DNA from: a virus
Lineage: Duplodnaviria; Heunggongvirae; Uroviricota; Caudoviricetes
Direction: 5' to 3' (one strand)
DNA: 4,103 nucleotides
IMG/VR virus record: IMGVR_UViG_2651869861_000013
Coordinates: 1 to 4,103 of that record
Positions 1-4,103 of the stretch are shown one piece after another (positions within the stretch are counted from its first letter, which is position 1; each line of letters starts with the position of its first letter). The translations under genes were made by a program, and so were the position numbers. The notes beneath the pieces were generated by a model. It saw only the letters and a list, made by a program, of their open reading frames with translations, was not told where the DNA came from and searched no databases.

Positions 1-2551
1 TGGCGGCACGGAGCCGCGCATCACCTGTAATGCGTACCTGACCACGCGGCGCAAGGCGTGGGATGTGCTCAGTGATTTCTGCTCGGCGATGCGCTGTATG
101 CCGGTATGGAACGGGCAGACGCTGACGTTCGTGCAGGACCGGCCGTCGGATAAGGTGTGGACCTATAACCGCAGTAATGTGGTGATGCCGGATGATGGCG
201 CGCCGTTCCGCTACAGCTTTAGCGCCCTGAAAGACCGCCATAATGCCGTTGAGGTGAACTGGACTGACCCGGACAACGGCTGGGAGACGGCGACAGAGCT
301 TGTGGAGGACACGCAGGCCATTGCCCGTTACGGTCGTAACGTCACGAAGATGGATGCCTTTGGCTGTACCAGTCGGGGGCAGGCACACCGTGCCGGGCTG
401 TGGCTGATTAAAACGGAACTGCTGGAAACGCAGACCGTGGACTTCAGCGTGGGCGCAGAAGGGCTTCGCCATGTACCGGGCGATGTCATTGAAATCTGTG
501 ATGATGACTATGCGGGGATCAGCATCGGTGGGCGTGTGCTGGCGGTGAACAGCCAGACCCGGACGCTGACGCTCGACCGTGAAATCACGCTGCCATCCTC
601 CGGCACCACGCTGATAAGCCTGGTTGACGGAAGTGGCAATCCGGTCAGCGTGGAGGTCCAGTCCGTCACCGACGGCGTGAAGGTAAAAGTGAGCCGTGTT
701 CCTGACGGCGTTGCCGGATACAGCGTATGGGGGCTGAAGTTGCCGACGTTGCGCCAGCGCCTGTTCCGCTGCGTGAGTATCCGTGAGAACGACGACGGCA
801 CGTATGCCATCACCGCCGTGCAGCATGTACCCGAAAAAGAAGCCATCGTGGATAACGGGGCGCACTTTGACGGCGACCTGAGCGGCACGGTGAATGGCGT
901 CACGCCGCCCGCGGTGCAGCACCTGACTGCCGAAGTCACCGCAGACAGCGGGGAATATCAGGTGCTGGCGCGCTGGGACACGCCGAAGGTGGTGAAGGGG
1001 GTGAGCTTCCTGCTTCGCCTGACCGTGGCAGCGGATGACGGCAGTGAGCGGCTGGTCAGCACGGCCCGGACGACGGAAACCACATACCGCTTCACGCAAC
1101 TGGCGCCGGGGAACTACAGGCTGACAGTCCGGGCGGTAAATGCGTGGGGACAGCAGGGCGATCCGGCATCGGTATCGTTCCGGATTGCCGCACCGGCAGC
1201 GCCGTCTCGGATTGAGCTGACACCGGGCTATTTTCAGATAACCGCCACGCCGCATCTTGCGGTTTATGATCCGACGGTACAGTTTGAGTTCTGGTTCTCG
1301 GAAAAGCGGATTGCGGATATCAGGCAGGTTGAAACCGCAGCCCGCTATCTTGGCTCGGCGCTGTACTGGATAGCTGCCAGTATCAATATCAAACCGGGCC
1401 ATGATTATTATTTTTATATCCGCAGTGTGAATACTGTTGGCAAATCGGCATTCGTGGAGGCTGTCGGTCGGGCGAGCGATGATGCGGAAGGTTACCTGGA
1501 TTTTTTCAAAGGAGAAATCGGGAAAACACATCTGGCCCAGGAGCTGTGGACGCAGATTGATAACGGTCAGCTTGCGCCGGACCTGGCTGAAATCAGGACG
1601 TCCATTACGAATGTCAGCAATGAAATCACGCAGACCGTCAATAAAAAACTGGAAAATCAGAGTGCGGCAATCCAGCAGATACAGAAAGTTCAGGTTGATA
1701 CAAATAATAACCTGAACAGCATGTGGGCCGTGAAACTGCAGCAGATGCAGGACGGACGCCTTTATATTGCGGGTATCGGTGCCGGTATTGAGAATACGCC
1801 AGCAGGAATGCAGAGTCAGGTGCTGCTGGCGGCAGACAGGATTGCGATGATTAATCCTGCGAATGGCAACACAAAGCCGATGTTTGTTGGTCAGGGCGAT
1901 CAGATATTTATGAATGAAGTGTTCCTGAAATATCTGACGGCTCCCACCATTACCAGCGGCGGCAATCCTCCGGCATTTTCCCTGACATCAGACGGAAAGC
2001 TGACCGCTAAAAATGCGGATATCAGTGGCAGTGTGAATGCGAACTCCGGGACGCTCAACAACGTCACGGTAAATGAAAACTGTACGATTAAGGGCATGCT
2101 GGAGGCGACTCAGGTCAGAGGTGACTTCGTTAAAGCTGTATCCAAATCATTTCCGAAACAGGCTGGTACGTGGGGTAACACGGAAACACCAAACGGGACG
2201 GTTACAGTCACCATCAGCGATGATCATAACTTTGACCGTCAAATCATTATTCCGCCCATTATCTTTAACGGAATAGCGTATAGCGATCCGGGAAGTGGTA
2301 ATAACCCGGGAGGTACAAGATACACGGGTTATGGTTTTGAAGTTCGCAAAAACGGTGTATTAATCGCATCCAGAGAAACTAAAGGGGCCATTCCCGGTAG
2401 CTACAGTGCGGTTATTGATATGCCGAGTGGCAGGGGAAGCGTCACTCTGGAGTTTAAGGTTTTCCATAAAGGCAATCAGCGGGCAGGTAATATCACCGAC
2501 TGTACGGTGATTGTGACCAAAAAAGCGGCTTCCGGCATCAGTATCCGTTGA
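1..2551 (+). CDS. J: Tail tip / central tail fiber host-specificity protein J, 5'-truncated by the window edge (C-terminal ~850 aa present; codon phase starts at position 2; stop TGA 2549-2551)
   Basis: The reading frame is open from position 2 ([51 protein letters not shown]...) with no stop until 2549-2551. The translation closely matches my recollection of lambda gpJ through the N-terminal and central part, including the fibronectin-III-like segment (...[37 protein letters not shown]...) and the [42 protein letters not shown] block. The GTG at 65 used by the ORF track is an internal codon, not the true start. Confidence 0.93.
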
Positions 2552-2573
2552 AATATTTATAACCCTAATAACG

Positions 2574-2600
2574 GGCGCCAGAAATGGCGCCTTTTTTATT
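2574..2600 (+). terminator. Rho-independent terminator-like hairpin downstream of J (7-bp GC-rich stem GGCGCCA/TGGCGCC, GAAA tetraloop, then TTTTTTATT)
   Basis: Read directly: stem 2574-2580 pairs with 2585-2591, loop GAAA 2581-2584, T-tract 2592-2597 followed by ATT. The minus-strand version has no U-tract after the stem, so it is + strand only. Confidence 0.6.
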
Positions 2601-2610
2601 GCAGAAAATC

Positions 2611-2616
2611 GGGAGG
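2611..2616 (+). promoter_or_regulatory. Shine-Dalgarno sequence (GGGAGG) for lom, 5 nt upstream of the ATG at 2622
   Basis: GGGAGG followed by spacer TAATT and ATG; near-consensus ribosome-binding site with good spacing. Confidence 0.6.
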
Positions 2617-2621
2617 TAATT

Positions 2622-3221
2622 ATGCGTAAAGTTTGTGCAGCAATTTTGTCCGCAGCCATTTGTCTGGCCGTATCCGGTGTGCCTGCATGGGCGTCTGAGC
2701 ATCAGTCCACGCTGAGCGCAGGATATCTTCATGCCAGTACGGACGCTCCCGGCAGCGATGATCTGAACGGGATTAACGTGAAATACCGTTATGAGTTTAC
2801 GGACACACTGGGGCTGATTACGTCCTTCAGTTATGCCAACGCCGAAGATGAGCAAAAAACGCATTACAGCGATACCCGCTGGCATGAGGATTACGTGCGT
2901 AACCGCTGGTTCAGCGTGATGGCAGGGCCGTCTGTGCGTGTGAATGAATGGTTCAGTGCGTATGCGATGGCGGGTGTGGCTTACAGCCGTGTGTCGACTT
3001 TTTCCGGGGATTATTTCCGCGTAACTGACAACAAGAGGAAAACGCACGACGTGCTGACCGGAAGTGATGACGCTCGCTACAGCAACACATCTCTGGCGTG
3101 GGGGGCTGGCGTGCAGTTTAACCCGACCGAATCAGTGGCCGTTGATGTCGCTTATGAAGGCTCCGGCAGCGGTGACTGGCGCACTGACGGTTTCATCGTG
3201 GGTGTCGGTTATAAATTTTGA
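2622..3221 (+). CDS. lom: Lom outer membrane protein, Ail/Lom/PagC family 8-stranded beta-barrel (lysogenic-conversion 'moron'); predicted signal peptide 2622-2693
   Basis: 199-aa ORF with a strong RBS. N-terminus MRKVCAAILSAAICLAVSGVPAWA|SEHQ is a typical Sec signal peptide with an AxA cleavage site. The C-terminus ends ...GVGYKF, the terminal aromatic residue typical of OM beta-barrels. The translation is nearly identical to lambda Lom as I recall it (SEHQSTLSAGYLHAS...GINVKYRYEF...RWFSVMAGPSVRVNEWFSAYAMAGVAYSRVSTFSGDY...). Position directly after J matches lambda gene order. Confidence 0.93.
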   Translation: MRKVCAAILSAAICLAVSGVPAWASEHQSTLSAGYLHASTDAPGSDDLNGINVKYRYEFTDTLGLITSFSYANAEDEQKTHYSDTRWHEDYVRNRWFSVMAGPSVRVNEWFSAYAMAGVAYSRVSTFSGDYFRVTDNKRKTHDVLTGSDDARYSNTSLAWGAGVQFNPTESVAVDVAYEGSGSGDWRTDGFIVGVGYKF

Positions 3222-3242
3222 TTAGTAACACAGCGTTATGAC

Positions 3243-3269
3243 AGCCCGCCGGTTCAGGCGGGCTTTTTT
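3243..3269 (+). terminator. Rho-independent terminator downstream of lom (8-bp stem AGCCCGCC/GGCGGGCT, loop GGTTCA, T6 tract)
   Basis: Read directly: 3243-3250 pairs with 3257-3264, loop 3251-3256, TTTTTT 3264-3269. It lies 22 nt after the lom stop. No U-tract follows on the minus strand. Confidence 0.65.
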
Positions 3270-3271
3270 GT

Positions 3272-3275
3272 GGAG
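3272..3275 (+). promoter_or_regulatory. Shine-Dalgarno sequence (GGAG) for the side tail fiber gene, 5 nt upstream of the ATG at 3281
   Basis: GGAG then TGGGT then ATG. An in-frame TGA at 3239-3241 excludes a longer upstream start. Confidence 0.5.
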
Positions 3276-3280
3276 TGGGT

Positions 3281-4103
3281 ATGGCAGCAGTACAAATATC
3301 AGGCGTGCTGAAAGATGGTGCGGGAAAACCAATACAGAACTGCACCATTCAACTGAAAGCCAGACGTAACAGCACCACGGTGGTGGTGAACACGGTGGCC
3401 TCTGAAAATCCGGATGAGGCAGGGCGTTACAGCATGGACGTCGAGTATGGTCAGTACAGCGTCACTCTGTTGGTGGAGGGATTCCCGCCATCACATGCCG
3501 GGACCATCTCCGTGTATGAAGATTCTCAACCGGGTACGCTGAATGATTTTCTCGGTGCCATGACGGAGGATGATGCCCGTCCGGAGGCACTGCGTCGTTT
3601 TGAACAGATGGTGGAAGAAGCAGCGCGTCACGCAGAGGAGGCGAAGAAGAATGCCGGAGAAGCAGAGACGTCCGCGAGGAATGCCGGCATATCAGCCAGT
3701 AAGGCGGAAGCGAGCGCCGCAAATGCTGATACTTCAGCAGAGGATGCATCGGAGTCAGCCCGGCAGGCGGCAGAAAGTGCAGCCTCTGCAAAGAAGTCAG
3801 AGGAAGCGTCCTCGTCCTCAGCCTCTGAGGCCGCTCAAAAAGCCAGTGAGTCATTACAAAGTGCAACAGATGCCGAGTTGTCAAAAAAGACGGCAGAAAG
3901 TGCAGCCGGTAATGCAGCCAGGGATGCAACGACCTCAACAGAAAAAGCCCGGGAATCAGCAGAAAGCGCACAGTCAGCGGAACAAAGCAGAATAGCGGCG
4001 GAAGACGCCGTAAACAGAATTCCCACCGTGGTGGGGCCTCCCGGACCAAAGGGGGAACCGGGTCCCGCGGGTCCTCAGGGGCCGAAGGGAGATAAAGGAG
4101 AGC
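3281..4103 (+). CDS. stf: Side tail fiber protein (lambda Stf / orf-401 family), 3'-truncated by the window edge; N-terminal domain, Ala/Ser/Glu-rich low-complexity shaft, then collagen-like Gly-X-Y repeat
   Basis: ATG at 3281 with RBS. I translated the frame by hand from 3281 to the window end and found no stop (about 274 codons). This ORF is absent from the supplied track because it has no stop inside the window. The N-terminus MAAVQISGVLKDGAGKPIQNCTIQLKARRNSTTVVVNTVASENPDEAGRYSMDVEYGQYSV...FPPSHAGTISVYEDSQPGTLNDF... closely matches lambda Stf as I recall it. Gene order J-lom-stf is the lambda order. Confidence 0.88.
   Translation, partial: MAAVQISGVLKDGAGKPIQNCTIQLKARRNSTTVVVNTVASENPDEAGRYSMDVEYGQYSVTLLVEGFPPSHAGTISVYEDSQPGTLNDFLGAMTEDDARPEALRRFEQMVEEAARHAEEAKKNAGEAETSARNAGISASKAEASAANADTSAEDASESARQAAESAASAKKSEEASSSSASEAAQKASESLQSATDAELSKKTAESAAGNAARDATTSTEKARESAESAQSAEQSRIAAEDAVNRIPTVVGPPGPKGEPGPAGPQGPKGDKGE
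4034..4103 (+). repeat. Collagen-like Gly-X-Y triplet repeat coding segment within stf (GPPGPKGEPGPAGPQGPKGDKGE..., continues past the window end)
   Basis: Read directly from the translation in the stf frame: at least 7 consecutive G-X-Y triplets, proline-rich, starting at codon 4034-4036. Confidence 0.8.

Follow-up and report, generated by a model that had tools for sequence, protein, structure and literature searches.

Among the prophage genes that alter their host, lom is a textbook case, and in the stretch of 4,103 nucleotides analysed here (the whole of which we call the window) it raises a simple question, namely how it comes to be transcribed. A preliminary description of this DNA had depicted lom as an insulated moron cassette, flanked by two intrinsic terminators and lacking a recognisable promoter of its own, and had named read-through of the upstream terminator, a promoter inside J and a non-canonical promoter as the conceivable sources of its transcripts. 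Comparison with related phages and prophages suggests that lom is most likely a passenger of the phage late operon rather than an autonomous unit. The locus itself is a standard lom locus: public phage records already contain the gene, the two terminators and the alternative without lom, in part with annotation. What the comparison usefully adds is the exact boundary of the cassette.

Gene content of the locus

The window spans the region from J through lom into stf in a lambdoid phage or prophage (Table 1). The Ail/Lom Pfam match is flanked on one side by J domains and on the other by an open reading frame with the phage_tail_N domain, in agreement with the earlier placement of lom between two tail genes. 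The top match among E. coli chromosomes covers the whole window at 93.6% identity, the matching E. coli prophage regions are annotated as gpJ over the J part, and the closest phage records are ~91% identical to positions 2400-3400 of the window and carry an identical three-gene annotation.

Table 1. Positions of the genes, signals and predicted RNA structures in the window.
Feature	Position	Strand	Description and basis
J, 3' two-thirds (tail-tip host specificity)	1 to 2551, entering from the left window edge; stop codon TGA 2549-2551	+	Pfam Ig_J, Ig_J_second, Phage_Tail_Tip, Ig_GpJ_C
Hairpin 1	stem-loop 2573-2592; T-run and ATT 2592-2600	+	Predicted resident J-stf intrinsic terminator; scan, fold, covariation
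Present/absent unit ('lom cassette'), ~668 nt	~2601-3268	+	Junction alignment of the window with L200, phage 21 and Tritos
lom RBS GGGAGG	2611-2616, 5 nt before ATG	+	Read from sequence
lom, Ail/Lom-family outer-membrane beta-barrel precursor, 199 aa	2622-3221	+	Pfam Ail_Lom PF06316
Hairpin 2	stem-loop 3243-3264; T-run 3264-3269	+	Predicted intrinsic terminator travelling with lom; scan, fold, conservation
stf leader TGTGGAGTGGGT, RBS GGAG	3269-3280	+	Also found directly after hairpin 1 in lom-less phages
stf, 5' part (side-tail-fibre)	3281 to 4103, leaving at the right window edge	+	Pfam phage_tail_N 1.5e-68

The Ail_Lom profile covers residues 1-199 of the 199 residues of Lom (E 1.8e-131; 436 bits against a cut-off of 23), and sequence homology connects the protein with solved 8-stranded barrels in the PDB, namely lambda Lom (9wso, E 3.5e-48), OmpX (1orm, 2e-20) and Ail (3qra, 6.5e-18). 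Judged by eye, the N-terminus (MRKVCAAILSAAICLAVSGVPAWA, followed by SEH) reads as a Sec signal peptide ending in AWA, and the C-terminus (VGVGYKF) closes with the terminal aromatic residue that serves as a signal for the outer-membrane assembly machinery. By its profile match, its homology, and its signal peptide together with the C-terminal aromatic residue, the protein of the window qualifies, as far as its sequence can tell, as a barrel of the Ail/Lom/OmpX kind. The literature on adhesion, serum resistance and anti-phage activity concerns lambda Lom only (PMC3594210; PMC12366544). At the position of the lom ribosome-binding site, GAGAGG or AAGAGG is found in all three Lom classes that we compared.

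Two terminator-like hairpins on either side of lom

A consensus terminator scan of the + strand returned exactly two strong sites in the window, one in each intergenic gap. Hairpin 1, between J and lom, has the form GGGCGCCA-GAAA-TGGCGCCT, with 8 pairs, and runs into TTTTTATT; its stem alone folds at -15.1 kcal/mol, and in its flanking sequence it reaches z = -3.6 against shuffles. Hairpin 2, between lom and stf, has the form AGCCCGCC-GGTTCA-GGCGGGCT, also with 8 pairs, followed by TTTTT; the stem alone folds at -17.6 kcal/mol, with z = -2.9 in its flanking sequence. Both sites thus bear the signature of an intrinsic terminator (8 pairs, of which 6-7 are GC pairs, a loop of 4 or 6 and T6). The Shine-Dalgarno sequence of lom starts 18 nt past the stem of hairpin 1, close to the roughly 20 nt that had been given for a hairpin with a GAAA loop and a T-tract, and the second strong hairpin with T6 after lom is likewise present. 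Database records already carry terminator labels for these sites in mEp460, Ayreon and phage 21: the site of hairpin 1 is an annotated rho-independent terminator in the mEp460 record, where hairpin 2 is annotated as a terminator as well, and in the phage 21 record hairpin 1 is labelled 'terminator' and the GGAG that follows it is the RBS of stf. The comparisons confirm both predicted hairpins as real and as lying where the preliminary description had placed them.

Both hairpins could, in principle, be functionless GC-rich palindromes that arose by chance, and the raw count would be compatible with this, since the window holds 5 terminator-like sites against 4.1 +/- 1.9 in shuffles and is therefore not enriched. 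For this reason we relied on the comparison with related sequences. Among the lom loci collected from IMG/VR together with lambda (n = 148), a terminator-like hairpin occurs within 87 nt before the ATG in 146 of the 148, and one occurs within 200 nt after the stop codon in 140 of 145. In the 24 distinct upstream sequences, 94.8% of the cells in the hairpin 1 stem are paired, compared with 38-61% when the columns of the 3' partner are slid; three stem pairs show compensatory changes (GC/AU, CG/UA and AU/UA), and the covariation score was reached by none of 500 shuffles. Hairpin 2 is almost unchanged across Lom classes, lambda included, and so says little on covariation. Each of the two intergenic gaps holds exactly one of the hairpins, ~95% of ~150 loci keep them, and non-homologous hairpins stand at the same places in lambda and in loci of the L040 type. 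The conservation and covariation data thus exclude, for practical purposes, an origin by chance alone, and the conservation and the compensatory changes in hairpin 1 indicate that these hairpins are under selection.

Mosaicism around lom and comparison with lambda

Sliding identity profiles show that the receptor-binding end of J (~2050-2520) has been exchanged independently of the sequence downstream. The locus L039, for example, shares ~50% identity with the window in this part of J and 94-96% from position 2530 through lom. The lom class of the window is paired with at least two receptor-binding ends of J, and there is thus no strict matching between J and Lom. Lambda and a third Lom class, the latter with a barrel only 46-48% identical in protein, share the final 100 nt of lom, hairpin 2 and the beginning of stf with the window at 80-100% identity, and the leaders are alike in all three classes (…GAAAA…GAGAGG…). 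A minority of loci (L039/L040 type) has another lom 3' end and a different, 13-bp terminator ~100 nt downstream; all the arrangements that we saw have a terminator a short distance ahead of the next late gene. A scan of contigs for distant Lom loci mostly picked up lambda DNA that contaminates unrelated assemblies; apart from this, it recovered a few loci of Escherichia and Shigella, which have the same hairpin.

Lambda shares with the window the gene order J-lom-stf (stf being orf-401 there), a hairpin with a T-run between J and lom, and a leader of the same style (AAAACAGTGAGAGG). Its hairpin 2 is near-identical to that of the window (AGCCCGCCGG..GGGCT with T6) and lies 11-12 nt before stf. 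In contrast, lambda Lom is only 46% identical to the Lom of the window, the receptor-binding end of J differs as well, and hairpin 1 of lambda (CGTCCG GGAA CGGGCG, followed by TTTTATTAT) folds at -9.0 kcal/mol, against -15.1 here, and occupies the same place with a non-homologous sequence.

The lom-less junction defines the cassette

The IMG/VR locus L200, found by searching relatives of the stf N-terminus, has a J 3' end, a hairpin 1 and a TTTTTTATT that are identical to those of the window, and continues directly with TGTGGAGTGAGTATG, that is, with the leader and start codon of stf. The same order is seen in L200, phage 21 and Tritos: the stop codon of J, an identical hairpin 1, TTTTTTATT, and then TGTGGAGTGA(A/G)TATG, where stf begins. 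Of 5426 complete E. coli genomes, 741 carry this lom-less junction at a coverage of at least 80%, E. coli LF82 being one example, and so do 18 phage records, among them phage 21, Tritos, ev207, ev017, HannyBb and PhiR11_1. It shares hairpin 1, the T-run, ATT and the stf leader with the window and differs from it in lacking the 668 nt that hold lom and hairpin 2, so that it represents the 'empty site' by which the cassette is defined.

The unit that is present or absent opens with a leader of 21 nt (GCAGAAAATCGGGAGGTAATT), which contains the RBS, continues with lom and a spacer of 21 nt, and closes with hairpin 2 and the greater part of its T-run. It sits immediately 3' of the T-run of hairpin 1, and hairpin 2, which is missing together with lom in the lom-less phages, restores the arrangement of a terminator, a 12-nt leader and stf. 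The edges are ambiguous by 2-3 nt, given the TT at both junctions, and the difference may reflect either an insertion of lom or its deletion between the two T-runs. Since the same hairpin 1 is found in lom-less phages, it is to be regarded as the resident terminator between J and stf and not as an insulator of lom; the upstream hairpin, which had been counted as part of the cassette, does not belong to it, as phage 21 and Tritos carry the identical hairpin between J and stf. With its 21-nt leader, the lom unit leaves no room for a promoter, and the question shifts from where the promoter of lom is located to how much polymerase passes the terminator of J.

Search for a promoter of lom

A sigma-70 scan returned no + strand site anywhere in the window. 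In our own position-weight-matrix (PWM) scan, in which the spacer could be 15-19 nt long and an extended -10 raised the score, the best score in 2000-2621 was 7.43 (TTGACC-19-CATTAT at 2232), below the median best score of 8.72 obtained when the same stretch was shuffled, and lambda pR, pL, pRM and the lac promoter score 9.8-13.9 in the same scan. These results bear out the earlier observation that no sigma-70 promoter can be recognised before lom. Both scans cover promoters of the sigma-70 type, and activator-dependent or non-sigma-70 promoters would escape them. The best candidates vary in position and sequence between lineages and are equally weak, with none better in lambda, which also has no sigma-70 match upstream of lom. 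The authors of the mEp460 record annotated consensus promoter(s) elsewhere in that record and none for lom. In the literature that we searched we found no mapping of the lom transcription start, and the paper of Tree (2014) on EHEC sRNAs does not mention lom.

Hand inspection of 2480-2621 and of the lambda intergenic region for sigma-54, sigma-E and PhoP-box motifs gave only candidates whose spacing or half-sites did not fit. We also considered an RNA thermometer, or pairing that would hide the Shine-Dalgarno sequence, as AACCC pairs with the GGG of this sequence in the fold of 2552-2625 and a ROSE_3 match was obtained, though a weak one (17 bits). This was rejected because most relatives have GAGAGG, which is unable to pair in that way; the TTTATAACCC motif is kept in lom-less phages too, which also argues against it. 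No Rfam family reached its gathering score, and the weak matches to AaHKsRNA82, STnc40 and STnc50 lie mainly over the terminator. The lomR gene of the Rac prophage in E. coli K-12 was set aside as a test of expression: the 'barely expressed' entry in an RNA-seq compendium refers to a 3' fragment behind an IS5 insertion and is uninformative on the promoter.

The alternative to be weighed at this point is a dedicated, non-canonical promoter, situated within the final few hundred bases of J or overlapping with hairpin 1, which we regard as unlikely. It could be activator-dependent (of the PhoP, SlyA or OmpR type, as for pagC and ail), have an extended -10 or use an alternative sigma factor, and in that case hairpin 1 would serve the lom transcript as a 5' attenuator or a stabilising stem. 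A weak extended -10-like sequence, TGAAATATT, does lie on the stop codon of J (2549-2557, score 5.38) and would place a start just before hairpin 1, and a sub-threshold Rfam match to an Aggregatibacter sRNA extends from hairpin 1 across the leader into the first codons of lom. Against this, TGnAATATT is specific to the J type of the window, most relatives reading GCTGAATTTTATAACCC, and is absent in lambda; indeed no candidate is conserved across lineages. Moreover, the end of J is swapped independently of lom, as the comparison with L039 illustrates, and a promoter embedded there would be lost at each swap. A transcript that started upstream of hairpin 1 would also meet a strong terminator within 30 nt. 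The remaining point in favour of such a promoter is the expression of lambda lom from prophages, to which we return below.

Probable transcription of lom as part of the late operon

Along the late operons of lambda and phage 21, RNA polymerase modified by Q reads through intrinsic terminators. We consider it fairly probable that lom is a promoter-less 'gene plus terminator' passenger of a phage late operon. Hairpins 1 and 2 would stop ordinary RNA polymerase, and polymerase that comes from the late promoter and carries the Q antiterminator would, to judge from the relatives, ignore both of them; lom would be made mainly late in lytic growth, along with J and stf. Only few transcripts would reach lom in a lysogen, from weak or spurious upstream sites leaking past hairpin 1, the level of Lom would be low and dependent on conditions, and hairpin 2 would keep the leaked transcripts out of stf. 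Of the options named at the outset, read-through of the terminator fits best.

The window contains neither Q nor the late promoter. In mEp460, a complete relative, a Q homologue, the lysis genes and the genes from terminase through J, lom and stf lie on one strand, and five rho-independent terminators are annotated in the late operon: two of them follow the protease/scaffold gene and the major tail gene, one lies inside gene 012, and the other two follow J and lom. From these five we conclude that terminators inside late operons are ordinary, and to call lom 'insulated', as had been done, is an overstatement. Hairpins 1 and 2 resemble the usual intrinsic terminators of Q-antiterminated late operons, with which they share a strong hairpin and T-run between late genes on the coding strand; nothing material sets them apart from such terminators of lambdoid phages. 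As stf stands behind hairpin 1 in phage 21, in the same way as lom does here, genes behind hairpin 1 are evidently expressed lytically.

The hairpins might instead act mainly as stabilisers of RNA 3' ends or as processing barriers in the late mRNA, setting the amounts of J, Lom and Stf, with termination being incidental. The terminators of mEp460 do follow abundant structural genes (those for the protease/scaffold and the major tail protein), and between lambda and the lineage of the window it is the structure that is kept and not the sequence. A full terminator signature with a T-run of 6 right after the stem would be needless for a stability element, and we hold it to be improbable that this is the main role of the hairpins; such a role is, however, compatible with the transcription of lom as a late-operon passenger and not exclusive of it.

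Published observations on the expression of lom point in both directions. Two papers, both citing Liu 2013, describe a low level of Lom in lysogens and a strong rise late in infection (PMC12366544; PMC9836094), and a statement in PMC1151598, citing Juhala 2000, has late-operon terminators silencing aberrant transcription of the prophage as a proposal. In one array study lom went undetected in a lysogen, and the authors remarked that little is known of its promoter (PMC2147009). Expression of lambda lom from repressed prophages has been repeatedly reported, as papers citing the original work relate (Reeve & Shaw 1979; Barondess & Beckwith 1990), the level being given as low. Such prophage expression is usually taken to imply a dedicated promoter and counts against transcription of lom as a promoter-less passenger. 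The leak-through step is the weakest link of the late-operon explanation, because hairpin 1 looks like a strong terminator (8 bp, a GNRA loop and T6), and the leak past it might be too small to explain the expression reported in lysogens.

Both junctions of the cassette fall in T-runs. As a long shot, we may speculate that hairpin 1 is a regulated gate, responding to temperature, growth phase or a host factor, that sets the level of Lom in lysogens by read-through, and, more generally, that the T-runs of terminators are preferred landing sites for 'gene plus terminator' passengers.

Relation to morons and to receptor-masking genes

The classic moron comprises a promoter, a gene and a terminator (PMC3594210). 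The lom unit resembles it in being extra DNA that is absent from collinear relatives (L200, phage 21, Tritos and the 741 E. coli genomes) and in having a factor-independent terminator downstream (hairpin 2, with its counterparts in the lom loci surveyed). It departs from it in two respects: neither the sigma-70 scan nor the PWM scan finds a promoter within the inserted DNA, and the base composition is not distinct (GC 0.49-0.56 in lom, 0.47-0.50 in the 3' half of J and 0.53-0.57 in stf). GC content was considered as a sign of a foreign origin of lom and was discarded, as it is not distinctive. The reading of lom as a moron cassette flanked by two terminators therefore stands with respect to the gene, the two hairpins and the missing promoter, and falls with respect to hairpin 1, which is not in the cassette; the 'classic moron layout' that had been attributed to it does not apply to a unit with a 21-nt leader and no promoter (as defined in PMC3594210). 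The morons of HK97 and HK022 (Juhala et al. 2000; PMC3594210) are similar to the lom unit in that they are extra DNA between late genes in some relatives, have a downstream terminator and encode a product acting at the surface of the host cell, and they differ from it in that the lom unit is without a promoter of its own and has a GC content (0.50-0.55) like that of its neighbours. In practice this has a modest consequence: a 'moron' should not automatically be annotated as an independent transcription unit.

Receptor-masking genes are found beside the gene for the receptor-binding protein in several phages, as with cor of phi80, N15 and HK022 and llp of T5. The cor and llp systems are like lom in having a small envelope-protein gene directly after the host-specificity gene. 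Overexpressed Lom has been reported to block infection by lambda-vir, and transcription of lom as a late-operon passenger would fit a recent proposal in which Lom has its main effect late in infection, by a block of adsorption, and does not serve as a classical factor of lysogenic conversion (PMC12366544).

Lom type is not strictly matched to J type

The receptor-binding end of J (window 2050-2520) was compared separately from the stretch that follows it (2530-3100). Among loci whose Lom belongs to a single class, at 92-97% nucleotide identity, this end of J comes in at least two forms, which share only about 50% identity. The same J end also occurred both with lom, as in the window, and without it, as in the IMG/VR locus L200 and in the phage Tritos. 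Judged by sequence comparison, Lom is not strictly matched to J, since one Lom class follows differing J ends and the same J end is found with or without lom. This loose pairing is relevant to the proposed masking by Lom of the receptor that the phage itself uses.

For lambda Lom (206 aa) a solved structure is available (PDB 9wso, chain C). An apparent lambda lom region was also found in low-coverage genome contigs of many unrelated bacterial assemblies (loci L163-L175 and others), including those of Bacillus-like bacteria, Pseudomonas, Shewanella, Bradyrhizobium and other bacteria. These matches all give the same figures (43% identity to the Lom of the window, E 3e-48), several of the contigs are about 48.5 kb long, which is the size of the lambda genome, and the matches most likely represent contamination with lambda control DNA.

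Sequence features upstream of lom

A scan of the whole window for sigma-70-like sites returned a single one, TTCACA-16-AATAAT (10/12 matches), which lies antisense to J. The AT-rich patch inside J that contains it also holds the best -10-like hexamer of the + strand, TATTAT. An Rfam match below threshold, to Aggregatibacter sRNA 82 (RF02900), takes in hairpin 1 (located between J and lom) with its T-run, as well as the leader and first codons of lom; it scores 33 bits, where the gathering score is 51.4, and has an E value of 0.0013 in a 301-nt search. This match may be a chance similarity between terminators or, alternatively, may reflect a related hairpin-and-leader arrangement in Pasteurellaceae.

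Hairpin 1 itself varies among the related loci. Three of them (L005, L006 and L024) keep the stem and carry the loop inverted, GCC-ATTTCT-GGC versus GCC-AGAAAT-GGC, as if a short segment had been flipped across the palindrome. In L119 a deletion upstream of lom has fused the T-run of the hairpin straight to the lom ATG (GGTGCCTTTTTATG), with loss of the lom leader and RBS, and in L035 a rearrangement breakpoint falls within the left arm of the hairpin.

Variation on the 3' side of lom

L100 and L104 carry an IS21-family insertion at GTTAT, after the lom stop and before hairpin 2, the terminator 3' of lom. The element has TGTCA...TGACA ends and encodes an IstB-like ATPase ORF; its left and right junctions come from separate contigs. 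The lom 3' end and the downstream region differ in about one in eight loci (L039-type and L040), which are without hairpin 2 and carry an alternative terminator.

Positions of features in the window and in related loci
Feature	Location	Strand	Remarks
AT-rich patch	window 1380-1440		inside J
Sigma-70-like site	window 1404-1431	-
RF02900 match	window 2565-2647	+
Inverted loop of hairpin 1	~window 2579-2586		L005, L006, L024
IS21-family element	L236 1-1190
Alternative 13-bp terminator	L040 2204-2233		GAAGCCCGTGGCGTCACTGCTGCGGGCTTT + T-run; ~100 nt 3' of lom; also in L039-type loci
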